From contig CAVRAD010000013.1 in assembly GCA_963718845.1 (NCBI GenBank), forward strand, positions 9,893 to 73,892: a stretch of DNA of 64,000 bases, in the 5' to 3' direction. Position 1 is the first letter of the stretch; each line of letters opens with the position of its first letter. Both the position numbers and the translations under genes were made by a program. Positions 1 to 17,761 of this stretch are shown in pieces. The notes beneath the pieces were generated by a model that saw only the letters and a list, made by a program, of their open reading frames with translations, was not told where the DNA came from and did no database searches. Source of the DNA: an uncultured Acidobacteriota bacterium (lineage in GTDB: Bacteria; Acidobacteriota; UBA6911).

Positions 1-241
1 GCTCCTCCATCTCCCCCCCACTCCGGTGGCGACCCTGGAGCGATCAAGGAATTGCGCGCTGAGCAAAGGCATTCGCTATGCCTATATCGGGAATGTGCCG
101 GACCATCCGGGCAATCACACATACTGCCCCCAATGCGGGAAGGTTGTGATTCGACGCAGCTCCTTTTTTATAGCGGAGCAGAATATTGTGCGCGGGAACT
201 GCAAGTTCTGCGGAAGATCCATTGCAGGTGTCTGGTCCTAA
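1..241 (+). CDS. amrS: AmmeMemoRadiSam system radical SAM enzyme, C-terminal fragment (5' end outside window)
   Basis: The frame is open from the window edge to TAA at 239-241. The tail GIRYAYIGNVPDHPGNHTYCPQCGKVVIRR...GNCKFCGRSIAGVW (YxGNV plus two CxxC pairs) is typical of this family's C-terminus. It sits directly upstream of a Memo/AMMECR1 gene. Confidence 0.7.
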   Translation, partial: LLHLPPTPVATLERSRNCALSKGIRYAYIGNVPDHPGNHTYCPQCGKVVIRRSSFFIAEQNIVRGNCKFCGRSIAGVWS

Positions 242-335
242 AATATGTTTTTGGCGTGCGAGCCTGCCTGCCAAACAAAGATCGTGAACCATGCGGGCTA
301 AAAATGCGAAGGATCCAATATTCAAGGGGAAAACC

Positions 336-1856
336 ATGAAAAGAAGCCTGGCTCTTGCCATTGCAGCCCTTGTGATTCTGGCTTCATCTGCAGGCTCCGG
401 CACCAAGCCGTCCGACACACGACCGCCGGCGGTTGCCGGCCAGTTCTACCCGGCCGATCCGCAAAAGCTGAAGCTTGCCATTCAGCAGTATCTCCAGGAT
501 TCCGTCGAAATTGCTATGGAGAAACCGCTCGCTCTCATTGTGCCTCACGCCGGATATATATATTCCGGACAGATTTGTGCGGACGCATACCGTCAGGTTG
601 CTGGACGCGCGTATGACGTCATTGTGCTGCTGGGAGTGAATCACACAACAGGGAATTTCAGCGGGATTTCGCTGGGAAACTATGGTTCTTTTCGCACTCC
701 TCTGGGCAACAGCCTGGTTGATGAAGAGATTACATCCGCCCTGCTGGCCGAGTGCACGGACTGCAATCGAAACCGCGAGGTTCAATTAAGAGAGCATTCC
801 ATCGAGGTTCAGCTTCCTTTTGTGCAAACCCTTTTTCCGAATGCCCGGATTGTCCCCGCCATCATCCATCCGCCGGACAGCAAAATGTGTCAGCGCTTCG
901 GCGAGGCGCTGGGAAAGGTGTTAAAGGGCCGGCGGGCGTTAATCGTGATCAGCTCGGACTTGTCCCACTATCCGACGAATACGAATGCAGAAAAAGCGGA
1001 TTCTCTGACTCTCACAACCATTGCCGCGCTGGATCCTTCACGGGTCATCTCCGTGATGCGCGTTCTGGACTTGCCTAATCTGGAAACGAGAGCGTGCGGG
1101 GAAGCCGCAATCCTTGCAGGCATGGCGGCAGCCAAGGCGCTGGGCGCCACGCGCGCTGTTGTCGCAGGCTACGCAAACTCCGGGGACGTCCTGGCAGGGT
1201 ATGACGCTGCGCGCACTGTCGGGTACGGAGCGGTCATTCTGGCTCCGGGAAAGACCCCGAGTGATACGACCGTCTTGAATCGCGCCCCCACGCCCTCCCG
1301 GGCAACGGCGCTGCAGAAATCAGAAAAGAAAATTCTGCTCGCATTCGCGAGGGAATCCATTCTCTGGTATCTGACGACACAAACGCTCCCGCTGGCGCGG
1401 AAGCTTCCCGCACGAATGGATTTTCCGCAAGGCGCGTTTGTTACACTCAGAAAGGCCGGACAGCTTCGGGGGTGCATCGGACACATCCCGGGAGATACTG
1501 CGCTTGGTAAAACGGTGGGATCGATGGCTTTGCAGTCTGCATTCGGCGACTCGAGATTTGCACCTGTCGAAATCAGTGAACTGAAAAATCTGGAAATTGA
1601 AATCTCTGTTCTGACTCCCATGAAAGCCATTGCTTCCTCCAACGAAATCGTCGTCGGCCGCGATGGCGTTCTGATGTCCGCTGCGGGGACATCCGCAGTA
1701 TTCCTTCCACAGGTAGCGACGGAAAATCATTGGGATCGGGCGGAAATGCTCGACAACCTCTGTATGAAAGCGGGGCTGCAAACGGGATGCTGGAAGCGGA
1801 ACGCAAAATTCCAGGTCTTTCAGGCAGATGTTTTCAGTGAATCGCAATTCAGGTAA
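336..1856 (+). CDS. Fused Memo-like (AmrB) / AMMECR1-like (AmrA) protein with N-terminal signal or anchor
   Basis: ATG 336 follows AAGGGGA. The hydrophobic N-terminus is MKRSLALAIAALVILASSAGSG. Memo-like motifs are PPAVAGQFYPADP, VPHAGYIYSG and SSDLSHY. The C-terminal ~190 aa are AMMECR1-like (GAFVTLRKAGQLRGCIGHI, FLPQV). Confidence 0.85.
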   Translation: MKRSLALAIAALVILASSAGSGTKPSDTRPPAVAGQFYPADPQKLKLAIQQYLQDSVEIAMEKPLALIVPHAGYIYSGQICADAYRQVAGRAYDVIVLLGVNHTTGNFSGISLGNYGSFRTPLGNSLVDEEITSALLAECTDCNRNREVQLREHSIEVQLPFVQTLFPNARIVPAIIHPPDSKMCQRFGEALGKVLKGRRALIVISSDLSHYPTNTNAEKADSLTLTTIAALDPSRVISVMRVLDLPNLETRACGEAAILAGMAAAKALGATRAVVAGYANSGDVLAGYDAARTVGYGAVILAPGKTPSDTTVLNRAPTPSRATALQKSEKKILLAFARESILWYLTTQTLPLARKLPARMDFPQGAFVTLRKAGQLRGCIGHIPGDTALGKTVGSMALQSAFGDSRFAPVEISELKNLEIEISVLTPMKAIASSNEIVVGRDGVLMSAAGTSAVFLPQVATENHWDRAEMLDNLCMKAGLQTGCWKRNAKFQVFQADVFSESQFR

Positions 1857-1858
1857 AT

Positions 1859-3991
1859 GTGGGATATCTATTCGCCGTCGGATTTGTCTCCATTCTGGCG
1901 CAGACTGTGCTGCTCCGGGAACTCAGCGTTGCCTTTTATGGCGTTGAGTTGATCTACACGTTTGCCCTGGGAGTCTGGCTGTTTTGCAGCGCCTGCGGTA
2001 CCATGCTGCGTCGTAAAACCCAATCTCCGTCCTCTTTCAGCATCCAATTTCTTTTTCTGCTATTATCCATCAGCATTCCTATTGACATAGCCTTCATCCG
2101 TTCCGTCCGCCTTCTCTTTTCGGATGTGCCGGGCGGATATCTTCCGCTGCACACGCAGATTGGCGTTGTGTGTGTTTCTCTCCTGCCTGCGGGACTGCTT
2201 CTTGGTTTGCTGTTTCAGTGGACGGCCAAGGCGTATATTGCAGGGACAAAGTCGCTGGCAACAGCCTATGGCATCGAAAGCCTGGGGGGATTGGCAGGAG
2301 GAATCTGCGCCACGCTATTTCTAAAATTCGGCTGTCAGAATTTCTTTATCGCCCTGCTGTGTGCGGGGGTCGCAGCCGGATCGTCATTGCTGACTTTTCG
2401 CCGAAGCCGCTCGCGCTGGCTCTGCTTTGCCCCCATGGTTGCTATCGGTATTTTGATAGCACTTGCCTGGAAGTCTTCCCCGCTGGACCGGCTCATGACA
2501 TCCTGGACCCACCGGAATCTCGTGGAGACAAGGGATACTCCCTATTCAAGAATTACGGTTCTTTCCCGGGATGGCCAGACATCTGTATTCGAAAACGACG
2601 CCGTTTTGTTTGACAGCGAAGGCACCCGGGCTGAAGAGTTTGTCCATCCGGCGGCCTTGCAGCATCCAAATCCTAAAAGGGTTCTGGTGCTCGGCGGGGG
2701 CATTGAAGGGACCGTTCGCGAAGTCCTGTTGCACTCGCCTGAATCGGTGGATTATGTGGAACAGAATCCCGCTCTGATCCGCATTGTTGCCAAACACCTC
2801 CCGTTGGACATACAAAACTCTCTTCGCGCCGCCAATGTTCGGATTATCTATGACGACCCGCGCCGGTTCCTCAATCGGGCGCCTGCCTATGATCTTATTT
2901 TGGTGGGCATGCCGGAGCCGACGTCCGGACAGACAAATCGCTTTTATACCCGGGAATTCTATCGACAATGCTATGCGAAACTGAACGCACAGGGCGTTGT
3001 CGCCTTCAGCCTTCAGTCGTCGGAAAACTTCTGGACTCCACAGCTTACGCGCAGAATGGTCAGCATCTATCGGGCAGCCAGATCGGTCTTTCCGGAAGTT
3101 GTTTTCATTCCGGGCAGCACGAACGTAGTGATTGGATCCATGAATCCTTTGCCAAAGGACCCTTCCGTTCAAGTTGCCCGGCTGGAAAACAGAGGGATCC
3201 GGGCCAGAATTATCTCGGCGAATTTTCTCCGATATGTCTATACCAACGACCGGTTTCGCGAGATCTCCCGGATACTCGAATCCGGGACCGCCCCGGTCAA
3301 TACCGATACGCGGCCCATCTGTTATCAGTACACAATTCTGATCTGGCTTTCCAAATTCGTCCCCTCCTCAATACTCCGGGATTTTTCATTTCCCGAATTG
3401 AGCGGCGGTCGCAAAACCTTCATCCTGGTTGTTCTCAGTCTGCCCTTTCTGCTGCTGATGCGCTCATCGTGGTCCATAAAACGTACGGTGCTAATGGGGA
3501 TGGCGGGATTTGCAGGCATGGTATTGGAGACGATTCTTCTTCTGCACTATCAGACCAAGCACGGCATTCTTTTCCAGGATATTGGGATACTACTCACAGG
3601 CTTCATGGGCGGATTGGCCCTGGGAGCATTTGCTTTCGCTCGGATGCAACATCGTATCTCCAAAGGATTCGGGATTGCGCTGTTTGCGGGATTTGCAGGG
3701 CTGAGTGCGGTTATTGGCCTGGAAATAAATTCCGGCAGTGAAGCAGGCCTTCTGGAAATCCTGGGACTGCTGGCGCTGACAGGTTTCCTTGTATCCGGAG
3801 TATTCGCGTTTGCCGGCCTGCACGCCGTGAGCGATCAAGGGAAAGTGATCACCCCTCTGTATGCTGCAGATTTGATCGGCGGATGCATAGGATCTGTGCT
3901 CGCAAGCCTGGTCTTGGCACCCCTCGTGGGATTGGCGGAAACCGCGTATTGGTTGATTCCCGCAGCACTGCTTTCCGTCCTGCTGTTTTAA
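1859..3991 (+). CDS. Polytopic membrane protein with spermidine-synthase-fold (aminopropyl/methyltransferase-like) core
   Basis: GTG 1859 lies 3 nt after the previous stop. Multiple hydrophobic helices on both sides flank RVLVLGGGIEGTVREVL, VDYVEQNP and DLILVGMPEPTSGQTNRFYTREFY. Confidence 0.7.
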   Translation: MGYLFAVGFVSILAQTVLLRELSVAFYGVELIYTFALGVWLFCSACGTMLRRKTQSPSSFSIQFLFLLLSISIPIDIAFIRSVRLLFSDVPGGYLPLHTQIGVVCVSLLPAGLLLGLLFQWTAKAYIAGTKSLATAYGIESLGGLAGGICATLFLKFGCQNFFIALLCAGVAAGSSLLTFRRSRSRWLCFAPMVAIGILIALAWKSSPLDRLMTSWTHRNLVETRDTPYSRITVLSRDGQTSVFENDAVLFDSEGTRAEEFVHPAALQHPNPKRVLVLGGGIEGTVREVLLHSPESVDYVEQNPALIRIVAKHLPLDIQNSLRAANVRIIYDDPRRFLNRAPAYDLILVGMPEPTSGQTNRFYTREFYRQCYAKLNAQGVVAFSLQSSENFWTPQLTRRMVSIYRAARSVFPEVVFIPGSTNVVIGSMNPLPKDPSVQVARLENRGIRARIISANFLRYVYTNDRFREISRILESGTAPVNTDTRPICYQYTILIWLSKFVPSSILRDFSFPELSGGRKTFILVVLSLPFLLLMRSSWSIKRTVLMGMAGFAGMVLETILLLHYQTKHGILFQDIGILLTGFMGGLALGAFAFARMQHRISKGFGIALFAGFAGLSAVIGLEINSGSEAGLLEILGLLALTGFLVSGVFAFAGLHAVSDQGKVITPLYAADLIGGCIGSVLASLVLAPLVGLAETAYWLIPAALLSVLLF

Positions 3992-4110
3992 TTGATTAAT
4001 GAGGAAGGTGCGCGTGAAGAGCAGCGCTTGCTTGCGTCGTTCCTATGATCCATTGTATAAAACGATAGCGTGTGGGGGGGCTTCAAACCTCAGTCAGAAG
4101 AAACGGAATA

Positions 4111-5112
4111 ATGCAGACAGACAGTTCAAACGGGAGTGTGCTTGTCACCGGCGGAACAGGCTTCGTAGGGCGAAATCTTGTCGAAGCACTGTTGCAGAGA
4201 GGACACGAAGTTACATGCCTCGTGAGAAACACAAGCGATACCCATGCGCTTCAAAAACTGCATGTGCGCCTCGTAATGGGAGATATGAACGACCGGGATT
4301 CCATCCGGGAAGCCGTGCGCGGAGTTCAAACCGTTTATCATCTGGCCGGACTGATCAAAGCTGCGCGGCGTGAGCACTATGTGCGGGTCAATCAGGCCGG
4401 GACTCGCCTTCTTCTGGAAGTGCTGGCAGAAACAAATCCTGATTTGAGACGATTTGTGCACATGAGCAGTCTGGCTGCCGCGGGTCCCGGCACCGGCAAC
4501 CGGGGGCTGAACGAAGAGGACAAGCCAAATCCAATTTCCTGGTATGGAGAGAGCAAGCTTCTATCTGAACAGGAAGTCCTGCAATTTTCACACGCCTTCC
4601 CTGTCACAATTCTTCGACCCTCGGCGGTGTATGGCCCGTACGACGCAGAAACGCTTCTTGCATTCCGCATGATCAAGCGGGGCTGCCTGTTCACGCCGGG
4701 ACGATTGATCCGTCGATTCAGCCTGATTTACGTTCATGATTTGGCCTCTGTCTGCATCCAGTCAGGCAACTGCGACACGCCTTCAGGATCGATATATTTT
4801 GTCTCCCGCCCGGAAGTCTATACCTGGGAGGACATCGGGCGCGCGATAGCGCAGGCTCTGGGGAAGCACTATCGGCACATCTCATTTCCTCAATGGCTTG
4901 CTGAAGCCATAGGCGGCGCGGGAGACCTCTGGGCGAAAGTCACTGGCCGGCCGGCAACACTGAACAGCCAAAAGGTCCGGGAACTGCTCCAGACATCCTG
5001 GATATGCGATTCATCTAAGGCGTTAGCCGCGCTGGGTTTCAGCCCTGCGACGGACCTGGCCAGCGGGATAAACGAAACAGTTCGTTGGTACCAGAGTCGA
5101 GGATGGCTATAG
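4111..5112 (+). CDS. NAD-dependent epimerase/dehydratase family SDR (candidate ceramide-pathway reductase CerR)
   Basis: Starts at ATG 4111. Rossmann motif VLVTGGTGFVGRNLV and YGESK (YxxxK). The family call is firm; the CerR role is inferred only from the neighbouring FAAL-ACP-Spt genes. Confidence 0.8.
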   Translation: MQTDSSNGSVLVTGGTGFVGRNLVEALLQRGHEVTCLVRNTSDTHALQKLHVRLVMGDMNDRDSIREAVRGVQTVYHLAGLIKAARREHYVRVNQAGTRLLLEVLAETNPDLRRFVHMSSLAAAGPGTGNRGLNEEDKPNPISWYGESKLLSEQEVLQFSHAFPVTILRPSAVYGPYDAETLLAFRMIKRGCLFTPGRLIRRFSLIYVHDLASVCIQSGNCDTPSGSIYFVSRPEVYTWEDIGRAIAQALGKHYRHISFPQWLAEAIGGAGDLWAKVTGRPATLNSQKVRELLQTSWICDSSKALAALGFSPATDLASGINETVRWYQSRGWL

Positions 5113-5306
5113 CTGGCAATGATAGGCTCTATCCCATGGGAAAACTGATTGAAAGTCTGCGCAAAACAGGCTATGTTCGACCAGCAGATCAAGATAGCGT
5201 GATGACAAAGGTTGCCGGGATTGGATCCAGGGGCGATTAAGGTTTTCATATGCCTGCCCTTGCAGGGAATCTGCAATCCAACGCGCCCTGACGGGACGAG
5301 GAGGAT

Positions 5307-7028
5307 ATGGAAGAGACGCTGAATGCTGCGTGTGATGCGATTGCGCACATAGAGCATAAAGGCTATACATTCCTTGACAACGACCTCACGCCCGCCGACT
5401 GGTCCTATTCAGAGGCTTGCAGGGAGGCTAAGAAGCTTGGTGCGTGCCTTCAAACACTCGGCTTGACGAAAGGGGATCGTCTTGCCCTGGTTTTGAACGC
5501 CCCGGAAGATTTTGTTCTGTCTTTCCTTGGGGCGGTCAGAATGGGAGTCATGCCCGTTCCTATGTACCCTCCCCTGGCACTTGGGCGGCTGGATAATTAT
5601 ATCGAAAGAGCGGCTGGCATTTTGCGTGTCTCGGGCGCAAAAGCGTTGCTCACCACCAAGGAACTCCTTCCTTTACTTCAGCCTGTTCTTTCCCGCGTGC
5701 CCACGCTGCAAAGCATTCTGGATATTGAATCCCTGCGGCAAATGGGAAACCTGACGCTGAACGAGCCAGGGACAAGGCCGGACGAGCCCTGTTTTCTCCA
5801 ATTCACGTCGGGATCCACCTCGGCGCCGAGAGGGGTGATCGTCACACACGGAAATCTCATTGCCAATGCAAAGGCAACCATCAAGAGTCTCGAAATTCAC
5901 CCGGATACCGATCGCGCCGTAAGCTGGCTCCCCCTCTATCACGATATGGGTCTTATTGGATTCGTGATCGCAACGATGGTCGCGCAAATTCCGGTGGTAT
6001 TCATTCCGACCATTGCGTTCGTAAAGCATCCCGGTGTATGGATGGAGACGGTCCATAAATATCGCGCCACGATCACCTTCGGGCCAAATTTCGCTTTTGA
6101 ACTTGCTGCGAAGCGAGCGCCCAAGACGTCTCGCATTAATCCGGATTTATCCTGTCTGCGCGTCCTCGGCTGCGGCGCGGAACCAATCAACCCCAAAACG
6201 ATGGAAAGCTTTATTGCCGCCTTTGCGCCCCTGGGACTCAAACCGAATGCGGTCCTGCCATGCTACGGGATGGCGGAAGCGACGCTTGCGATCGCTTTCG
6301 ACCATTTGCATACACCTATGCAAAAACTGGTAATCGACCGCCACGCCTATGAAACCAGGAGCATAGCGCGTCCCATCGGCTCCGACGAAGAAGTGACGGA
6401 TCCGAAGAGGAAATTTGAGCTGGTCTCCTGCGGTCGCACTTTTCCGGACCACGAAATCAAAATCCTGAACAACACAGGCAAACCGCTTCCGGAAGGCCAG
6501 GTGGGTGAAATTGTCTTCCGCGGACCGAGTGTTACCCCTGGATATTTTCAAAATCCGGAAGCTTCGCGCCAACTGTTGCAAGGAGGCTGGCTTCATACCG
6601 GCGATCTCGGCTTTATCCTCAACGGCGATCTGTATGTCTCCGGAAGGCAGAAGGATCTGGTCATTATCAATGGTCGCAATTATCCTCCGCAGGCAATTGA
6701 ATGGATTGTCGAAGAAATCGCAGGCATTCGCAAAGGCAGCGTGGTGGCATTCTCGGTCAATGGGGATTCTACTGAGAAGCTTGTGATCATTGCGGAAACC
6801 ACCATGACGAATAGTGAAGAACTGGCGCTGGTAATCGGCAATCAGGTGCGATCTGCGCTCGGCCTTGCAGTGCACAAGGTCGTGCTTGTCGGGCGTGGAT
6901 CTATTCCGAAAACTTCCAGCGGCAAACTGCAGCGCAGGCAAACCAAGGCTCTGTTTGAGGAGGGCCAGCTCGGATTCCCGGGCAGCGTAACAGAATCCTC
7001 TCCGGCAGAAGGCATGGTCCTCAGCTGA
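5307..7028 (+). CDS. Fatty acyl-AMP ligase / AMP-dependent synthetase (candidate acyl-ACP synthetase)
   Basis: ATG 5307 follows GAGGAGGA. Adenylation motifs are FLQFTSGSTSAPRGVIVTHGNL, YGMAEATL, HTGDLGF and SSGKLQR. Confidence 0.85.
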   Translation: MEETLNAACDAIAHIEHKGYTFLDNDLTPADWSYSEACREAKKLGACLQTLGLTKGDRLALVLNAPEDFVLSFLGAVRMGVMPVPMYPPLALGRLDNYIERAAGILRVSGAKALLTTKELLPLLQPVLSRVPTLQSILDIESLRQMGNLTLNEPGTRPDEPCFLQFTSGSTSAPRGVIVTHGNLIANAKATIKSLEIHPDTDRAVSWLPLYHDMGLIGFVIATMVAQIPVVFIPTIAFVKHPGVWMETVHKYRATITFGPNFAFELAAKRAPKTSRINPDLSCLRVLGCGAEPINPKTMESFIAAFAPLGLKPNAVLPCYGMAEATLAIAFDHLHTPMQKLVIDRHAYETRSIARPIGSDEEVTDPKRKFELVSCGRTFPDHEIKILNNTGKPLPEGQVGEIVFRGPSVTPGYFQNPEASRQLLQGGWLHTGDLGFILNGDLYVSGRQKDLVIINGRNYPPQAIEWIVEEIAGIRKGSVVAFSVNGDSTEKLVIIAETTMTNSEELALVIGNQVRSALGLAVHKVVLVGRGSIPKTSSGKLQRRQTKALFEEGQLGFPGSVTESSPAEGMVLS

Positions 7029-7070
7029 CTGAACCCAGACATGCTGTCTTTCTATTCTCCATTTTCGTTG

Positions 7071-7106
7071 CTGCCGATGCAGGCGCCTATGCGCGGCAGG
7101 TTTTTT
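7071..7106 (+). terminator. Possible intrinsic terminator/attenuator after the ligase gene
   Basis: ctgccg...cggcag forms a 6-bp GC-rich outer stem with a small inner stem, followed by TTTTTT at 7101-7106. The stem is bulged, so the call is weak. Confidence 0.35.
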
Positions 7107-7125
7107 AAAGAAGAGCGTTCACAAA

Positions 7126-7482
7126 ATGAAAAGCACGGATCAGGAACTGATACACGTTCTCAAGGCTGCCGTTTATAACATCAGCTTGAAGGAACTCGGG
7201 AGCATTGACACGGAAACAAAGATTTCAGAACTCGGCCTGGATTCCGTTGCGGTAATGGAGGTGATAGGCCTTCTGGAGGAAGACTTCTCGATACGCATAA
7301 GGGACGAAGAAGTTGCCGCTCTCGGCAGCGTGGGTGATCTTCTGAATCTTGTTCGCAGATTGTCCCCGTCAGAGCAGGCGGCGCCCCGTGAAATACCTGG
7401 ATCCGAAGCAAAGCCCGGCAACGGAAAAAGCAACGCTGCCAGCCACCGAGTGCTGGAATATAGCGGATTTTCCCGAAGTTAA
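7126..7482 (+). CDS. Acyl carrier protein
   Basis: Phosphopantetheine site LGLDSVAVMEVIGLLEEDF. The carrier fold ends near aa 80. The 38-aa tail overlaps the next ORF, so the 3' end is uncertain. Confidence 0.7.
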   Translation: MKSTDQELIHVLKAAVYNISLKELGSIDTETKISELGLDSVAVMEVIGLLEEDFSIRIRDEEVAALGSVGDLLNLVRRLSPSEQAAPREIPGSEAKPGNGKSNAASHRVLEYSGFSRS

Positions 7483-8662
7483 AAACCTCGAACGGCGACT
7501 GCAGGAAATGGAGCGGATCGGGCTGAAGAATCCCTATTTCCGCGCCCATGACGGGACCGCAAGAAACCGGAGCGTCATCGATGGCGTCGAGATGCTCAAT
7601 TTTTCAAGCTACAACTATCTTGGATTTTCAGGACACCCCGAAGTCAACGCTGCCGCCAAGGACGCCACCGACCGTTTCGGAACATCCGTATCGGCCAGCC
7701 GTCTGGTTTCCGGGGAGCGCCCTATTCATCGGGAACTCGAGCAGGGGCTCGCGCAGCATATCGGCGTCGAGGATGCGGTGGTTTTTGTCAGCGGCCACGC
7801 CACCAACGTCACAACCATCGGCCACCTGTTCGATAGGAACGACCTGATCCTGCACGATGCGCTTTGCCACGACAGCATTATTCAGGGAATATATTTATCC
7901 GGCGCGAAACGGCGATCGTTTTCACACGGCGATCTGATGGAGCTTGAACAGACCCTGGCGCAGTATCGCAGCCAATACCGGAGAGTCCTTATTTGTACTG
8001 AAGGGCTTTTTTCGATGGATGGCGATATCTGCGACCTGCCCGGCCTGATCGAATTGAAGAAACGGTTTCGATGCAACCTGATAGTCGACGAGGCACACTC
8101 CATAGGAGTGCTGGGCCCTTCGGGACGCGGTATCGCCCACCATTATCCCGGGATCGATCCTCAGGACGTTGATCTCTGGATGGGGACGCTGTCCAAGTCC
8201 TTTGCCAGCTGCGGCGGCTACATCGCGGGCAGCAGGCAGCTTGTGCACTATCTTAAGTACACGACACCGGGATTTCTCTACTCTGTGGGAATGCCCGCCC
8301 CGAATGCGGCCGCTGCGCTGAAATCCCTGGAGCTCATGCAGCGCCACCCGGAAATCGTCGAACAGCTGCGCCGGCGAGCGAAACTGTTTCTCGACCTTGC
8401 CCGCAGCAAGGGAATCAATACGGGATTGTCCGCGGGCGCGGCCGTCATCCCTGCCATCATCGGCAACTCGAATCAAAGCATGCAGGTGAGTCACGCGATG
8501 GCTGCCCGGCGCATTAATGTCCAGCCGATCGTCCATCCTGCAGTCGAGGAAAATGCCGCCAGGCTGAGGTTTTTTATCAGCGCGACTCACACCGAAGAGG
8601 AAATACGGACCGCGGTCGATGTACTGGCAGAGGAACTGGAAAAAGTCGGCAGCGCTTTCTGA
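7349..8662 (+). CDS. spt: Alpha-oxoamine synthase, serine palmitoyltransferase-like
   Basis: Motifs NFSSYNYLGFSGHPEV and DEAHSIGVLG, with PLP-lysine motif GTLSKSFASCGGY. The ORF opens with TTG 7349; GTG 7388 is an alternative, so the start is uncertain. Confidence 0.85.
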   Translation: MFADCPRQSRRRPVKYLDPKQSPATEKATLPATECWNIADFPEVKNLERRLQEMERIGLKNPYFRAHDGTARNRSVIDGVEMLNFSSYNYLGFSGHPEVNAAAKDATDRFGTSVSASRLVSGERPIHRELEQGLAQHIGVEDAVVFVSGHATNVTTIGHLFDRNDLILHDALCHDSIIQGIYLSGAKRRSFSHGDLMELEQTLAQYRSQYRRVLICTEGLFSMDGDICDLPGLIELKKRFRCNLIVDEAHSIGVLGPSGRGIAHHYPGIDPQDVDLWMGTLSKSFASCGGYIAGSRQLVHYLKYTTPGFLYSVGMPAPNAAAALKSLELMQRHPEIVEQLRRRAKLFLDLARSKGINTGLSAGAAVIPAIIGNSNQSMQVSHAMAARRINVQPIVHPAVEENAARLRFFISATHTEEEIRTAVDVLAEELEKVGSAF

Positions 8663-9804
8663 TATATGCGGTAGCGCTTATAAATCTCAGCGCCGAAGAG
8701 CCGCATGCTTCGATTGATCAGGTCGTTGTTTTCCAGTGTCCAGGAAAACTCGCAGCTTTGATATCCCGCGGCCACGCCGCGGCGGAAAGATTCGTAATAA
8801 AGCGCGGCGCCGAGACCGCCCCAGTTCTGCACCTTCTTTGCGATTCCCAGAGCCAGCACGCGGACCTGCCGGATATGCCGGCCATAATAGATCAGCTTGG
8901 GAAGACCAAACGGCAGAAGCCTTCCATTGATCTTTATCAGCGCCTGGTTGAAATCGGGCAGAGCTAACGAGAAGGCGACCGGCTCCCCGTTTTTTTCCGC
9001 GATCAGGACCACGCGCGGATCCACGATCGTTTTCAGATCTTTGGCCATGTGCCCGAATTCGGCGTCCGTCATGGGCACAAATCCCCAGTTAGTGCTCCAA
9101 GCGTCGTTATAGATTCTTTTGAGAACTTCAACTTCATCCCAAAATTTTTTCATGTCGATGGTACGAATCCGTATTCCTTCATCCTTTAAAACCATCTCGC
9201 CCACTCGAATGATTTTGGGATTCAACCCTTTTTCGGTCAGCAACCACCAGGCATAGAGGTCCATCGCTTTGTCAAACCCGGCTTTTTCAATCAACTCGGG
9301 ATAATAGCGCGGATTGTGAGGCATCATGAGGCAGGGGCAGGAATCAAATCCTTCAATGAGGGTCCCGACGGTTTCATTGGTCGAGTAATTCATCGGCCCG
9401 CGCAATTGATGCATGCCACGATCCCGTGCCCACCGGGCGGCACGATCAAGCAGCGCCGAGGCAACGTCCTGGTCGGGAATCGATTCGAAGAAGCCGAAAA
9501 AGGCAGTGTTTTCGTTGTGGTAGCGATTGTGATTGTTGTTCAGGATGGCCGCGATGCGACCGACAACCTCGCCCTGCCGCACGGCAATAAAAAAATCCGC
9601 GCAGGAGTGATCGAAAAAGGGATTCTTGGTTTTATCGAGCACCTTCTGCATGTCGACGATCAGAGGCGGGACCCAAAAAGGATCCTCGCGATAAACCTTC
9701 CACGGAAGCCGGATAAACTGCCGCAAGGTTCTGGCATCTGTCACAGGGACTATGTCTGGTCGGTCCAAATTTCCCACTCCTCGACCTTGGCTTAATCGCT
9801 TCAC
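8587..9804 (-). CDS. GNAT-fold ~400-aa acyltransferase (candidate bacterial ceramide synthase)
   Basis: Motifs LPWKVYREDPFWVPPLIVD, NPFFDH, GFFGFFES and RGPMNYSTNE. It converges on spt, and the ORF ends overlap by 76 nt. The ceramide synthase role is inference. Confidence 0.6.
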   Translation of the reverse strand: MKRLSQGRGVGNLDRPDIVPVTDARTLRQFIRLPWKVYREDPFWVPPLIVDMQKVLDKTKNPFFDHSCADFFIAVRQGEVVGRIAAILNNNHNRYHNENTAFFGFFESIPDQDVASALLDRAARWARDRGMHQLRGPMNYSTNETVGTLIEGFDSCPCLMMPHNPRYYPELIEKAGFDKAMDLYAWWLLTEKGLNPKIIRVGEMVLKDEGIRIRTIDMKKFWDEVEVLKRIYNDAWSTNWGFVPMTDAEFGHMAKDLKTIVDPRVVLIAEKNGEPVAFSLALPDFNQALIKINGRLLPFGLPKLIYYGRHIRQVRVLALGIAKKVQNWGGLGAALYYESFRRGVAAGYQSCEFSWTLENNDLINRSMRLFGAEIYKRYRIYQKALPTFSSSSASTSTAVRISSSV

Positions 9805-9935
9805 TTGCAGGCCAAGTATATATCAAGTCGAAGCGTCCCCTCTCTCCAAGAATGCGGCAACCGCCGAACCATGATATGATGCCCGCCGTCCATTGCCCCC
9901 CGTTCGGGCGGATCCTATTGGCGCACGGGAGTCCC

Positions 9936-10937
9936 ATGAATCATCCGTTTCGAAGATTGCTGCCGGCAATTCTGGTTATCCTGTCTGTGGTTTTATTTGG
10001 CATCTTGGCTTATACGCTCGTCGAGAAATGGACGTTTCTGGAAGCCATTTATATGATCACTACGACGCTTTTTGCCGTCGGATTCCAGGAAGTGCACCCT
10101 CTTTCGCCAGCCGGCAGAATTTTCACCATGTTCATCATTGTCGGCGGTGTCGGCAGCGCCATCTATGCTGCGGGCCAGGCGGTGGAGATTATCGTTGAAG
10201 GTGAGATGACCGGATATCGAAAGAGGAAGAGGATGGACAAAATAATCAGGGAAATGAAAGGCCACCACATCATCTGCGGATTCGGCAGAGTGGGCCACCA
10301 GGTAGCGCAAACGTTTGAAGCATCCCACGTCCCTTTCGTGGTAATCGACAGCAAAAAGGAAACCCTGGAAGAACTGGAAGCCAAGGGTTTCGCCGGCATC
10401 CTCGGGGATGCTACCAACGACAGCATTTTGCTGGCAGCGGGAATTCTGCACGCCAAAGGTCTTGTGGCTTGCTCGGATTCGGACGTAGCCAACGTCTATG
10501 TAACGCTGTCCGCGCGCGTCTTGAATCCGAGCCTCAACATCGTGGCCAGAGCCGGCCTGCACGATACCGAAAAAAAGCTGATTATGGCAGGTGCGAACAG
10601 GGTTATTTCGCCCTATTTCATATCAGGCACCCGCATGGCAGCGCTGGCAACACGGCCTGTGGCCAGTGACTTTCTCGATCTCGTCACTCATGGCGGGCAG
10701 GTGGATTTCAGCCTGTTCGAAATCACCATCCCCAAAGGCTCACCGCTGATTGGCAAAAGTGTCCGGGATGCAGACATCACAAACATATCCGGCGCCTTGG
10801 TTCTGGCCATGCGAAAAGCCGACGGCGCCTTCGAAATGCAGCCTAAAGCACTATCAAAGATCGAAAAAGGTGATGTGCTGATCGTGCTGGGAACTCAAGA
10901 GCAATTCGAAGCGCTGGAAAAGATAGTGGAACTGTAA
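9936..10937 (+). CDS. 2-TM potassium-channel-like protein with RCK (TrkA-N/TrkA-C) domains
   Basis: Starts at ATG 9936. TM1, pore loop ITTTLFAVGFQEV and TM2 are followed by HIICGFGRVGHQVA (NAD-binding-like RCK) and a C-terminal TrkA-C-like domain. Confidence 0.8.
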   Translation: MNHPFRRLLPAILVILSVVLFGILAYTLVEKWTFLEAIYMITTTLFAVGFQEVHPLSPAGRIFTMFIIVGGVGSAIYAAGQAVEIIVEGEMTGYRKRKRMDKIIREMKGHHIICGFGRVGHQVAQTFEASHVPFVVIDSKKETLEELEAKGFAGILGDATNDSILLAAGILHAKGLVACSDSDVANVYVTLSARVLNPSLNIVARAGLHDTEKKLIMAGANRVISPYFISGTRMAALATRPVASDFLDLVTHGGQVDFSLFEITIPKGSPLIGKSVRDADITNISGALVLAMRKADGAFEMQPKALSKIEKGDVLIVLGTQEQFEALEKIVEL

Positions 10938-10970: not shown

Positions 10971-11714
10971 TTATTGTGAAATGGGAAAATCCTCTTCGAC
11001 GACGGTAGCGTAATTTTTAAAGCCTCTGGCGATCAGGATGTCCATATTCGTCAGCCGCACACCGGTCTGATTGATGCGCTCATAAATTCCGCATACGCCG
11101 GCAATGTCGTATCCCTCCAGAGTTATCAGGGGAATACTGTAATTCGTGAAGACAAATTGCAACTGCTCAAGATTCTTGTTGACCGACTCGGAAAATCCCT
11201 GCAGAGAAGTGAGCGAGCAACGGTAGTCCGCCGACAAGCCCGGGGCGTCTTTCAGGCGAATGAGAAACGCCGGATCGGCATCCCATCGATGCTTGTAATA
11301 GTCTTTCTCGAAGAAAAATTCCGCCTTGGTCAAATCAAAATAGAGCGTATAGTCGAACGAAAACTGCTCCCGGGTTCTGCCCGTCCCGCCGTAAAAGGAG
11401 GCAAGCAGGGACGTGGCTCGCTGCTGCCCGTCGAGAATATAGGACCGTGACGATTGGTTGGAATCGTTGTCCCCCGGAAGATAAAACCCGCCCAACTGTC
11501 TGTGCACATGAAGCCGGACTTTGGTTTTCCAACACAGAATGCTACCGATCGGATAGCACCGGTAGATGCTGTCCCATAGATTGACGATGTGCTCCGGATC
11601 CCAAATGAACAAGCGCTGAAACGTCGGAATCAGAAACTCACCGGCCGCAAGCTGGCATATAAAGTCACTGAGGTTCTTATTCCTGGTGGTGATTTTTCGA
11701 TTGCGGTAATCCAA
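10971..11714 (-). CDS. DUF262 (ParB/GmrSD N-terminal-like) domain protein, no nuclease partner domain
   Basis: Motifs IPTFQRLFIWD and ILDGQQRATSL. At 247 aa it ends without a DUF1524/HNH module. The region is visibly more A/T-rich than its neighbours. Confidence 0.75.
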   Translation of the reverse strand: MDYRNRKITTRNKNLSDFICQLAAGEFLIPTFQRLFIWDPEHIVNLWDSIYRCYPIGSILCWKTKVRLHVHRQLGGFYLPGDNDSNQSSRSYILDGQQRATSLLASFYGGTGRTREQFSFDYTLYFDLTKAEFFFEKDYYKHRWDADPAFLIRLKDAPGLSADYRCSLTSLQGFSESVNKNLEQLQFVFTNYSIPLITLEGYDIAGVCGIYERINQTGVRLTNMDILIARGFKNYATVVEEDFPISQ

Positions 11715-14799: not shown

Positions 14800-16745
14800 C
14801 TACGGCACTACCGGCAGCTCGATCGAGCTAGCTTGAGCGCCGGTGCGATAGATGCGCTGCGTCGCTTTCCGGAAATCCTCGGGCTTGGCATAAAAGATGT
14901 TTTCCACATAGGTTTGAGGATTGCGATCATAGAGCGGGAACCAGCTCGATTGAATCTGCACCATGATCCGGTGCCCCGGCAGAAAGACGTGCGATGCCGC
15001 AGGCAGATTCCAGCGGTATCGCTCCACGTCTCCTGACTTAACCGGTGATGGATGCGCAAAATCCTTGCGGTACCGGCCGCGCAGGATATCGGCCGAAATC
15101 ATCAGCTGATACCCTCCAAGTTCGGGCTGCGATGGATATAAATCGGGATAAACGTCAATCAGCTTCACAACAAAGTCGGAATCGGTGCCGCTGGTCGACG
15201 CGAATAGGTTCGCGACCGGCTGGCCGCTGATCGCAACCGGTTGGGTCAGGACATCCGATGAATAGCTTAAGACATCGGGGCGGGCCGCAATGCTGCGCTG
15301 ATCGTCCACGAGCCACCGCCCCCAGGTAGAATCCTGCGCATACGTCGGGCGGACCGGACGAAGCCTATAGGGCACAGGTTTCGCCGGATCGGAAATATAC
15401 TCGTCGCAGGCGATTCCTTCCGAGCCCGGCTTCTCAAATTCAAGCCGAAAGCCCTTCCGGAGATAGATCGTGCGCATGCCGGCAGAGCAGCCGGATTCAC
15501 AACTGCGGGGCCAGGAGTCATAGCGCTGCCAGGAGTTCATCCCGGTTTGGTACGCCAGCACAGGCGGCGTATTCGCCTTCGCCCCTCCCTCCTTGAGATG
15601 CTCATTCAAGAAGGGCAGCAGACACCGTGCTGACGAAAAAAGTAAGCCGTGTCCCCGTTGAATTTAATGGGTCCCAATGAAGATCCATCTCCATTGGAGC
15701 CGCTATGGGGCCAGGGGCCTATCACCAGATAATTCCTGTCATTGCGCAGGTCCTTGGATTCGGTCGCGCGGTAGGCGGCGATCGCGCCATAGATGTCTTC
15801 CTGATCCCAGAGACCGTGCACATAAAGCGTCGGGACATTCAGCGGCTGGCTGCCGAGTATTTTATCCAGAGCCTGCCCCTGCCAGAATGCGTCGTAGGAA
15901 GGATGCTGCAGCAGCTGGCGCCAGAATCCAAGTTGCTCCATTCCCACGCGACGTCCCAACTCGCCGGCCGAACCTGCAGCCATGAATAGATCGTACTGAT
16001 CGTATGTGTCGCTCCCCCAACTGATGGAAGAGTCGTGAGACGCTTCCTGATCATAGATGTAGTCCATCATGATTTGACGAAACGCGCCGTTGTGAAACCA
16101 GTCGTCTCCTATCCACGTATCGACCATGGGATTGATCGGGACCGCGGCCTTGAGCGCAGGATGCGGATTCACAAGTCCCATGAGCACCAGGAATCCGTCG
16201 TAGGAGGTGCCGATCATTCCGACGCGGCCGTTGTTTTCCGGCACGTTTTTCAGGAGCCATTCGATCGTATCGTACGTATCCGTGGAGTGATCCACGCCGG
16301 TTGAATTCAGCTGCCCGCGCAGCGGCCGGTTCATCCGGTACTCGCCTTCAGACCCGTATTTGCCGCGCACATCCTGATAGACGCGGATATAGCCCGCCGT
16401 GGAGATCACATCGTCTCCGCCGGGCAGAACCGCCTCGAGACGCGGGCTCTGATCGCGGGAAGAGCGCCGGGACGCGCCGTACGGTGTGCGTGTCAGCAGA
16501 ACCGGCATGCGCTCCTCTGCTCGAGGTATCATAATAATCGTGTGAAGCTTCGCCCCGTCCCGCATCGGGATCATTTCTTCCCGTCTGACAAAATCGAAGT
16601 TTTGCGTTACCGCCTGGAATGCATCGGGGATTTCATCGGGAGCATGAACATCCATCAGCGGAGGGATGGTTTGAGCGGTCGAGTGCAATTCGAATACAAC
16701 CAACAGCACAATGGCCGATGCGGATAAGGCTTTCCACAGTCTCAT
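14800..16745 (-). pseudogene. CocE/NonD family hydrolase (S15 X-Pro dipeptidyl-peptidase-like), frame disrupted
   Basis: Two abutting ORFs. ORF 15606-16817 carries signal MRLWKALSASAIVLLVV and the nucleophile elbow GTSYDGF. ORF 14800-15609 is the C-terminal beta-sandwich domain. The other frame reads ..LLPFLNEHLKEGG across the junction, so there are indel(s) near 15613-15633. Confidence 0.75.
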
Positions 16746-16816
16746 GTCTGGAGCTCCTACAACAGAACGATCCCGGAGTTCTTGCCGCAGCAAAAGGCTC
16801 TGCTTAGAACAGAGCA

Positions 16817-17761
16817 TTAGCGTAGATCAAAGAAGGTATCGAGGTCCGCTACGCCTTTTTTTACCGCGGCCGCACTGTCACGAAGCAGAGCTTTTTCCGA
16901 TTCATCGAGATCCAGTTCCACAATGCGTTCGACTCCGTTCTTCCCCAGAAGAACCGGCACGCCGATGAAGAGGTTCTCGATACCGTACTCCCCGCGCAAA
17001 TACACGGCGCACGGAGCCAGCGTCTTGCGGTCTGTGATGATGGATTCGACCATCTCCGCAACGGAGGCTGCCGGGGCATAATAGGCGGAGCCCGTTTTAA
17101 GGTGCGCAACGATCTCCGCTCCGCCGTTGCGGGTCCGGTCCACGAGTCGGTCGATGGCGGATTTATCCAGCAACTGTGTAATTGGAATTCCCGCCACGGT
17201 GGCAAAGCGGGGCAGAGGCACCATCTGGTCCCCATGCCCGCCCAAAACCATCGCATGCACGTCGGAGAGAGCACAGTGCAATTCGTCCGCCACGAAGCAG
17301 CGAAAGCGCGTCGAGTCGAGGATGCCGGCCATGCCCACAACGCGCCGCACGGCGAACCCTGTAGTGCGATACGCGACATGGCACATTATGTCCAGGGGAT
17401 TGGACACTACAATCACCGTCGAATTCGGGGCATACCGTGCAATATGCTTTGCCGCCGTTTTGACGATTCCCGCATTCACCTTGAGCAGATCCATGCGATC
17501 CATGCCCGGCTTGCGGGCCACGCCGGCCGTGATCACCACAACGTCGCTGTCGGCTATGGCAGAAAAATCGTTCGTTCCTTGTATGGAAACGTCATAGCCG
17601 CGCATGGGGCCGGCATGCAGAAAGTCGAGCGCCTTCGTCTGCGGCATTCCTTCGACCACGTCAACCATGACGATGTCGGCGATCACTTTTTCAGCGATAT
17701 AGTAAGCCGATGTTGCGCCGACGTTACCGGCGCCGATTATGCCGACTTTTCTCCTAGGCAT
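16817..17761 (-). CDS. mdh: Malate dehydrogenase (LDH-like type)
   Basis: ATG 17761 follows GGAGG. Motifs KVGIIGAGNVGAT, ARKPGMDRMDLL, ILDSTRFR and LGGHGDQMVP. Confidence 0.85.
   Translation of the reverse strand: MPRRKVGIIGAGNVGATSAYYIAEKVIADIVMVDVVEGMPQTKALDFLHAGPMRGYDVSIQGTNDFSAIADSDVVVITAGVARKPGMDRMDLLKVNAGIVKTAAKHIARYAPNSTVIVVSNPLDIMCHVAYRTTGFAVRRVVGMAGILDSTRFRCFVADELHCALSDVHAMVLGGHGDQMVPLPRFATVAGIPITQLLDKSAIDRLVDRTRNGGAEIVAHLKTGSAYYAPAASVAEMVESIITDRKTLAPCAVYLRGEYGIENLFIGVPVLLGKNGVERIVELDLDESEKALLRDSAAAVKKGVADLDTFFDLR

Follow-up and report, generated by a model that had tools for sequence, protein, structure and literature searches.

Does a compact block of genes at 4111-9804 of a 64-kb stretch of DNA from an uncultured Acidobacteriota bacterium (the window, all 64,000 nucleotides of it, in whose positions every coordinate below is given) encode a pathway for ceramide-type lipids, and does it do so with the enzymes known from other bacteria? 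The initial annotation had seen there an extended short-chain dehydrogenase/reductase (SDR), a fatty acyl-AMP ligase (FAAL), an acyl carrier protein (ACP) and an alpha-oxoamine synthase (AOS), with a GNAT acyltransferase convergent to them, and had read them as the five structural genes of ceramide synthesis in Caulobacter. We found five long reading frames of these same families within 4072-9804, the family assignments being confirmed with Pfam and NCBIfam:

4111-5112, plus strand (open from GTG 4072, likely start ATG 4111): CerR-type extended SDR, a candidate 3-keto reductase (Pfam Epimerase, 1.4e-37).
5307-7028, plus strand: FAAL of 573 aa, an AasR-like acyl-ACP synthetase (AMP-binding, 3e-68; NF006624, 498 bits).
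7126-7395, plus strand: ACP domain, whose assembled frame continues out of register to 7482 (PP-binding, 8e-10).
7396-7400, plus strand: an extra base that splits the ACP-AOS gene (DNA alignment with two relatives, G414 and G423).
7401-8662, plus strand (open from 7349): AOS domain, like serine palmitoyltransferase (SPT; Spt in bacteria) and akin to the types tethered to a polyketide synthase (PKS) or an ACP (Aminotran_1_2, 2e-47).
8587-9804, minus strand: tandem-GNAT N-acyltransferase of the bCerS/YghO family in a 405-aa frame (Acetyltransf_1, 9e-6).

Taken together the comparisons reported here suggest that these frames probably represent a four-gene cassette for a dihydroceramide-type lipid, in which the AOS appears to be a non-orthologous replacement of the usual Spt and the bCerS and CerR partners have been retained.

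How much of the known system is present was judged by comparing the Caulobacter proteins by way of the Escherichia coli cluster, a literature-anchored proxy whose equivalence is taken from PMC9386255: in E. coli B, ECD_02850 (yghO) corresponds to CC_1154 (cerS), ECD_02851 (aasR) to CC_1165, ECD_02852 (epi) to CC_1164 (cerR), ECD_02853 (acpR) to CC_1163 and ECD_02854 (spt) to CC_1162, and the E. coli B Spt makes 3-oxo-sphinganine from acyl-AcpR (Padilla-Gomez et al., PMC9386255). The proposed match to the Caulobacter set holds for the SDR, the FAAL and the GNAT, each the reciprocal best match of its E. coli counterpart, and breaks down for the AOS, which misses the Spt models and matches Kbl better than Spt in the same comparison. 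The GNAT aligns with YghO over its full length (36% identity, 374 aligned residues, 2e-85), and YghO searched against the window genome returns the GNAT as its sole match (2e-78), so that orthology of the GNAT to bCerS, one of the checks set by the initial annotation, does not refute its reading; this likeness had first surfaced in a tblastn search of plasmid records (about 36% over the full length). The FAAL and AasR find each other at 2e-95 and 9e-96 with runners-up at only 3e-23 and 2e-16 (34% identity and 3e-105 pairwise), and the SDR and the epi product do so at 1e-29 each way with runners-up at 1e-22 and 2e-8 (28% identity, 8e-37). The curated models say little about two of these families: the SDR lies below every NCBIfam cut-off with HpnA as its nearest model (150 of 368 bits), as is likewise the case for the E. 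coli epi product, and neither the window GNAT nor YghO has any NCBIfam match (0 each), there being no curated bCerS/YghO model in that collection. The ACP resembles AcpR only over a short, weak match (5e-6). It has the PP-binding domain and the DS motif, with its attachment residue Ser40 (nt 7243-7245) set within GLDSV, and together with the AasR-like FAAL it gives the locus both a dedicated acyl-ACP synthetase and a dedicated ACP.

Additional support comes from the predicted structure of the GNAT. Its AlphaFold model (predicted local distance difference test, pLDDT, 88.9; predicted template-modelling score, pTM, 0.85) has a tandem-GNAT fold with two GNAT-like halves in one chain, and the top Foldseek matches are the tandem GNATs 2wpw, 5kf1, 7q3a and MshD (E 4e-14 to 1e-10). 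The nearest solved structures, namely 2wpw, the glucosamine N-acetyltransferase 5kf1, MAB_4324 and MshD, acylate amines, and the modelled fold fits an amine N-acyltransferase. In the sequence database the GNAT has over 6000 matches (E <= 0.001), of which the best 120 are 71-92% identical to it.

The ACP and the AOS are the point at which the gene count changes. As assembled, the two frames overlap by 134 nt in different registers (7126-7482 and 7349-8662), and yet in 9/9 same-genus loci they form one open frame of 507-548 aa stop to stop that carries both PP-binding and Aminotran_1_2 by Pfam; in a 6.9-Mb genome of the genus the orthologue is a single 513-aa ACP-AOS protein, and the window ACP is collinear with the N-terminal ACP domain of the 513-515-aa fused proteins of its relatives. 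The single frame in all nine relatives implies that the window carries a 1-nt frameshift near 7396-7400, where a poorly conserved linker reads ATACCTGGAT against ATA-CGGGAT in the closest orthologue (DNA alignment, G414 and G423). A run of five A at 7427-7431 was considered as the indel site and rejected, because the alignment puts the extra base at 7396-7400. Since a single gene encodes both ACP and AOS in this lineage, the cassette is one of four genes, and the five structural genes first described hold true of the assembled frames only. An AOS tethered to a carrier protein, in the manner of PKS and nonribosomal peptide synthetase (NRPS) lines, is therefore what the relatives encode by fusion, and what one base breaks in the window.

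Is the lipid then still made in this organism? Should the frameshift be genuine, the window would hold a decaying pseudogene cluster and the product would no longer be formed, a reading we regard as distinctly unlikely. It gains from the extra base being confined to the window and absent in 9/9 relatives, from the absence of the cassette in 5/18 genus members, which tells us that loss occurs, and from the GNAT, which is without its normal stop and spacer: homology of the GNAT stops at nt 8650 (about 385 aa), and 8590-8649 encodes a 20-aa tail that its homologues lack, the closest (81% identity) included, the tail being read from the strand opposite the final 73 nt of the AOS gene (8587-8662) where the stop codon and spacer of the relative G414 are missing. 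Set against this, the catalytic residues are all intact, none of the other frames is truncated (57-87% identity to relatives), and the shift falls in a poorly conserved linker with GTG 7388 in a position to restart the AOS; moreover, separate ACP and Spt proteins function in Proteobacteria. The exact 118-aa ACP product is recorded solely from the window's own contig by exact-sequence look-up, so the frameshift has no independent confirmation. A further gene of the same window is split as well: at 14800-16817 on the minus strand, Peptidase_S15 (403 aa) and PepX_C (269 aa), which we take to be normally parts of a single CocE/NonD-type protein, lie in two frames with a 4-nt overlap, probably through a second single-base indel in the assembly. 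This second split makes an assembly indel the likelier cause, and the ACP-AOS frameshift is probably an assembly error and not a true inactivation.

The next question is to which AOS family the enzyme belongs. The catalytic residues His174, D247-x-x-H250 and the pyridoxal phosphate (PLP) lysine Lys283 (in GTLSKS) are all present, and every PLP-binding or catalytic residue that PMC10196870 names for the SPT of S. multivorum (His138, Ser185, Asp210, His213, Thr241, Ser243 and Lys244) is conserved. Among solved structures the S. multivorum SPT scores best (236 bits), followed by yeast Lcb2 (230), a Thermus Kbl/BioF enzyme (215) and E. coli Kbl (212), with the cysteate acyltransferases lower at 179-189 bits. 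Trees were built with IQ-TREE under LG+C20 PMSF in versions of 73 and 75 rows, from AOSs adjacent to GNATs in a wide range of phyla, paralogous AOSs of ten such genomes, the top matches to the window AOS among 400 genomes of its phylum, Spt, Kbl and BioF of E. coli, and, from PDB, the S. multivorum SPT, the Thermus AOS and yeast, human and Arabidopsis LCB2; they are without ALAS, CqsA, Alphaproteobacteria, Myxococcota, Asgard archaea and LCB1. In both versions the window AOS joins LCB2, S. multivorum SPT, E. coli Spt and all GNAT- or SDR-linked AOSs in an Spt-like clade (support 100/99 with 73 rows and 100/98 with 75), with Kbl, BioF and the Thermus enzyme outside, and the grouping with Spt that had been predicted is thus upheld. 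Within this clade the validated bacterial Spts form a core of 46 rows (100/98-99), and we observe that the window AOS lies outside that core, in a clade of 12 rows (95/89). Its companions there are the orthologue from the same genus, an AOS embedded in a PKS, three LCB2s and six AOSs of Acidobacteriota with an SDR partner and no GNAT partner. A tree in which the window AOS and the two others of its trio are kept outside the Spt-like clade is worse by 17.4 log-likelihood units (approximately unbiased (AU) test, p=0.027).

In three Acidobacteriota loci (L156, L157 and L160, of genomes G299, G004 and G386) the AOS has a CerR-like SDR for a partner, and neither a GNAT nor a FAAL lies within about 9 kb; their AOSs form a distinct group that is the sister of the window/LCB2 group in the tree, and G004 has a canonical GNAT-linked Spt besides its SDR-paired AOS.

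Several results weigh against the dihydroceramide reading, and most plainly against calling the AOS an Spt. It is under every curated Spt cut-off in NCBIfam (Spt-CFB NF047600, 320 bits with a cut-off of 640; Spt-BetaP NF047599, 244 of 500; Spt-AlphaP NF047603, 178 of 670), with bioF giving the top raw score (346 of 426) and Kbl 301 of 460, whereas E. coli Spt itself clears NF047599 at 599 bits. By BLAST its matches in E. coli rank as Kbl (211 bits), Spt (173) and BioF (154), the first being assigned to Kbl by its score agreement with 1fc4 (211.7 bits), and E. coli Spt in turn scores 201 bits on the genome's other AOS (contig 9) against 172 on the window AOS; the window AOS and E. coli Spt are 31% identical (6e-53), the reciprocal-best test fails both ways, and the AOS is not orthologous to proteobacterial Spt. 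Its branch in the tree is long, and the AU test lends no more than modest support, with the tested group defined after the tree was seen. Serine contacts in the S. multivorum SPT structures (PMC10196870) are mostly water-mediated or main-chain, and for that reason there is no usable signature of serine specificity. The frameshifted state of the ACP-AOS gene as assembled belongs among these points too.

Do these scores mean that the AOS is simply a housekeeping BioF or Kbl with unrelated neighbours? The top raw bioF score and the Kbl match in E. coli would be its grounds, and we consider it effectively refuted: the AOS falls below both curated cut-offs, the tree excludes Kbl and BioF at 100/98-99, and the protein is ACP-fused and co-inherited with the FAAL, SDR and GNAT. 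Moreover, the AOS on contig 9 clears the Kbl/BioF-family cut-offs TIGR01825 and NF005394, which makes the window AOS an extra, non-housekeeping copy.

If it is neither an orthologue of proteobacterial Spt nor a housekeeping enzyme, where did it come from? Beyond the genus, the nearest relative, and the sole close one in the 400 sampled genomes of the phylum, is at 58% identity the C-terminal domain of a 1787-aa protein with ketosynthase (KS), ketoreductase (KR), dehydratase (DH) and AOS domains. From this likeness we read the window AOS as one of polyketide ancestry and as a member of a carrier-tethered lineage inside the Spt-like clade. The locus of the large protein (L155, G019:C78 5642-11955), in another Acidobacteriota family, has a CerR-like SDR directly upstream; no GNAT was seen there, and Pfam detects no PP-binding domain. 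A 383-aa open reading frame upstream of this PKS-AOS was considered as a GNAT and rejected, the true upstream gene being the SDR on the other strand. The KS-KR-DH-AOS protein is itself a candidate PKS-type long-chain-base synthase.

A polyketide relative raises two further alternatives. The first is that the locus makes a small secondary metabolite or signal, for instance an amino-ketone or alpha-hydroxyketone autoinducer of the CqsA/LqsA type or an alkyl-amine product, with the GNAT as a tailoring or self-protection acetyltransferase; FAAL, ACP and AOS do follow the loading logic of natural-product lines too, and the nearest AOS relative lies inside a polyketide synthase. We think this highly improbable, as the AOS reaches 155 bits with a CqsA-type model whose cut-off is 428, the GNAT and SDR come from families that specifically accompany Spt in ceramide producers, and the cassette is without KS, thioesterase (TE), regulator or exporter. 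The second keeps the chemistry and changes the building block: with glycine, alanine or another amino acid in place of serine, the product would be a 1-deoxy-ceramide-like or other N-acyl amino-alcohol lipid. Its case lies in the position of the AOS outside the 46-row core, in its missing all curated Spt models, in the PKS-embedded domain that is its closest relative, and in the low-efficiency use of alanine and glycine by SPTs that PMC10196870 describes. Yet its sisters in the tree, eukaryotic LCB2 and the core Spt clade, use serine; the top PDB match is an SPT, with the cysteate acyltransferases below it; and SgaB, the only characterised PKS-partnered AOS found in the literature searched, has SPT activity (PMC12134224). 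On balance we judge another building block to be unlikely.

Whether the genes belong together at all can be asked of related genomes. The SDR, ACP-AOS and GNAT are kept in 9/9 same-genus loci and the FAAL in 7/9; at L167 only a fragment of the FAAL is seen at a contig end, and the cassettes of L166 (G424) and L168 (G413) are without it, from which it follows that their ACP must be loaded by another enzyme. A GNAT orthologue, and with it the cassette, occurs in 13/18 sampled genomes of the genus (63-80% identity of the GNAT), and 12 further genomes of the class yielded one distant GNAT homologue only. When GNAT homologues were taken from 80 species-level genomes spread over many phyla, their surroundings within 8 kb contained an AOS in 51/80, a CerR-like SDR in 44/80 and a FAAL in 3/80 (L012, L018 and L046, the last being the window's same-genus relative; the FAALs of L012 and L018 partner a core-clade Spt and not an ACP-fused AOS), and a Rubrobacter plasmid carries an AOS-GNAT-SDR operon. 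Since the block recurs in all nine related loci and AOS and SDR recur near GNATs, the grouping of these genes is not due to chance. The cassette has in addition a fixed site, flanked in the window by the following genes:

1859-3991, plus strand, left border: membrane protein of 710 aa with a spermidine-synthase-like domain (Pfam Spermine_synth).
9852-10937, plus strand, right border: TrkA/RCK K+ channel gene (Pfam).
10971-11714, minus strand, right border: GmrSD_N gene (Pfam).

In the relatives it likewise lies between the gene for the 710-aa membrane protein and the GmrSD_N gene, with or without the K+ channel gene, and the GNAT adjoins GmrSD_N directly in L163, L164, L166 and L168. In G300, a genome 98% complete, the 710-aa gene and GmrSD_N adjoin with a 28-nt gap (L170, G300:C137 5996-8539), a clean empty site from which we conclude that the cassette is a presence/absence polymorphism at a fixed position. 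The nine loci and this empty site together show the genes to be linked and co-inherited. A promoter and terminator scan of 3800-10100 returned fewer sites than in shuffled sequence, and so gives no evidence of an operon.

Upstream of the cassette, 1-3991 holds the tail of a radical-SAM gene, a Memo-AMMECR1 fusion and the 710-aa protein, which is aminopropyltransferase-like. Where the flank was reached, the 710-aa gene is kept in L161, L163-L166 and L168, Memo-AMMECR1 in L003, L164, L166 and L168, and the radical-SAM gene in L003 only; G300 has the 710-aa gene alone, at a contig end. We do not assign the 710-aa border gene to the lipid pathway, and no link of these upstream genes to the lipid genes was established.

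What would the cassette do? In the dihydroceramide reading, the FAAL would adenylate a long-chain fatty acid and load it onto the phosphopantetheine arm at Ser40 of the ACP fused to the AOS, and the PLP-dependent AOS, through Lys283, would condense the acyl-S-ACP with an amino acid (L-serine being the likeliest) in a decarboxylating step to give a 3-keto long-chain base. The YghO/bCerS-family tandem GNAT would then N-acylate the amine and the CerR-type SDR would reduce the 3-keto group; the order of N-acylation and ketoreduction is disputed even for Caulobacter. We favour this reading because all five products are homologous to those of the E. coli spt-acp-epi-aasR-yghO cluster, with reciprocal best matches for the SDR, FAAL and GNAT and a GNAT fold like that of amine N-acyltransferases; because the AOS falls in the Spt-like clade with a conserved active site and an SPT as its best structure match, in a genome that has a separate housekeeping AOS of the Kbl/BioF family; and because the AOS-GNAT-SDR triad recurs across phyla and the cassette is inherited as a unit. 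The amino-acid substrate, the acyl substrate and the lipid product are what we infer from these families, and of the three the amino-acid substrate is the main uncertainty.

The cassette shares with the five-gene system of Caulobacter and E. coli (PMC9386255, PMC11324152) the same five activities, with reciprocal best matches to the E. coli SDR, FAAL and GNAT at 28-36% identity and, as we propose for the window, a private acyl-ACP in place of acyl-CoA as the acyl donor of the AOS. Unlike in that system, however, the AOS lies in another subclade than Rhodobacterial Spt, failing both the reciprocal-best test and NF047599 and NF047603, the ACP is fused to it in the window genus, no LptF2/LptG2 or head-group genes lie beside the cassette, and the SDR has no visible N-terminal signal peptide, its NAD motif beginning at residue 27 of the 346-aa frame. 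The gene order differs as well: the window runs SDR-FAAL-ACP-AOS and then GNAT, the Caulobacter and E. coli clusters FAAL-SDR-ACP-Spt. In RefSeq E. coli, yghO adjoins a FAAL, an NAD-dependent epimerase/dehydratase, an ACP, a spt so named by PGAP, and an additional copy each of lptF and lptG. A query of 13 kb from E. coli (locus L006, NZ_AP022222 775705-794705), running from lptF2 to glcG with the end genes partial and including lptG2, spt-acp-epi-FAAL-yghO and glcC-glcF, was covered to at least 80% in 4071/5426 complete E. coli genomes, a count that includes the flanking genes; from this the ceramide-type gene set appears common in E. coli outside K-12, a strain without the spt cluster.

With respect to the Spt-bCerS-CerR core triad by which bacteria make ceramide (Stankeviciute et al. 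2022, Nat Chem Biol 18:305, as conveyed in PMC11334938 and PMC11087976), the window GNAT (42-53% identity) and SDR (33-42% to the SDRs of GNAT/AOS loci) are ordinary members of the triad families, which we found in Zixibacteria, Ignavibacteria, Bacteroidota, Binatia, Eisenbacteria, other Acidobacteriota and Rubrobacter. Those triads have an AOS of the 46-row core clade, whereas the window has an ACP-fused AOS of another subclade and an added FAAL. Lines of the PKS/NRPS kind are known to harbour PLP-dependent AOS domains (PMC3870968), and in Pseudomonas fluorescens MYb115 the PKS and AOS pair PfSgaAB makes sphinganines (PMC12134224). Similar to these systems the window AOS would take its acyl chain from an assembly-line-type carrier protein; in contrast to them the window is without KS, KR and DH, the chain is proposed to come from a free fatty acid by way of the FAAL, and the partner is a bCerS-type N-acyltransferase.

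Finally, does the company of LCB2 in the tree mean anything? The eukaryotic LCB2/SPTLC2 proteins (PDB 8c80_C, 6m4n_B and 7yjk_B) score 205-230 bits with the window AOS, although unlike it they form a membrane-bound heterodimer with LCB1, use acyl-CoA and have no ACP. The window AOS and LCB2 share motifs not found in the core bacterial Spts (SYNYLGF, DEAHSIG-LGP-GRG, G(I/V)DP-DVD and YS--MPAP), and AOS residues 87-300 (nt 7607-8260), with SYNYLGF, DEAHSIGVLGPSGRG and GIDPQDVD, are LCB2/SPTLC2-like and unlike S. multivorum or E. coli Spt. In the site-heterogeneous tree the LCB2 proteins of yeast, human and plant come out as sister to the window subclade (98/88), with both stems long, and AU comparison with the alternative gives a borderline p=0.047, so that we treat the relation as a lead only and not as a finding. 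That the ACP/PKS-tethered subclade of the window, its genus and the KS-KR-DH-AOS protein is the closest prokaryotic relative of LCB2/SPTLC2 seems to us doubtful. Were dense sampling to bear it out, the catalytic SPT subunit of eukaryotes would have descended from a carrier-protein-dependent bacterial AOS lineage, which differs from the alphaproteobacterial Spt origin that has been proposed (PMC10411912) and would bear on how eukaryotic sphingolipid synthesis arose. The possible affinity is in any case a testable lead on that origin.

The consequences for the bacteria themselves are more immediate. Bacterial ceramide synthesis was genetically defined only in 2021-2022, and homology to Spt, bCerS and CerR is now the chief means of charting its spread. 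In this cassette a carrier-fused, non-orthologous AOS of polyketide ancestry appears to have assumed the first step while its bCerS and CerR partners persist, and a survey that relies on a canonical Spt, by curated hidden Markov model or best hit, would therefore overlook such producers. The cassette predicts sphingolipid-type lipids in an environmentally abundant, uncultured genus of Acidobacteriota, and considering that acidobacterial membrane lipids serve as environmental proxies, it would matter for how those proxies are interpreted.

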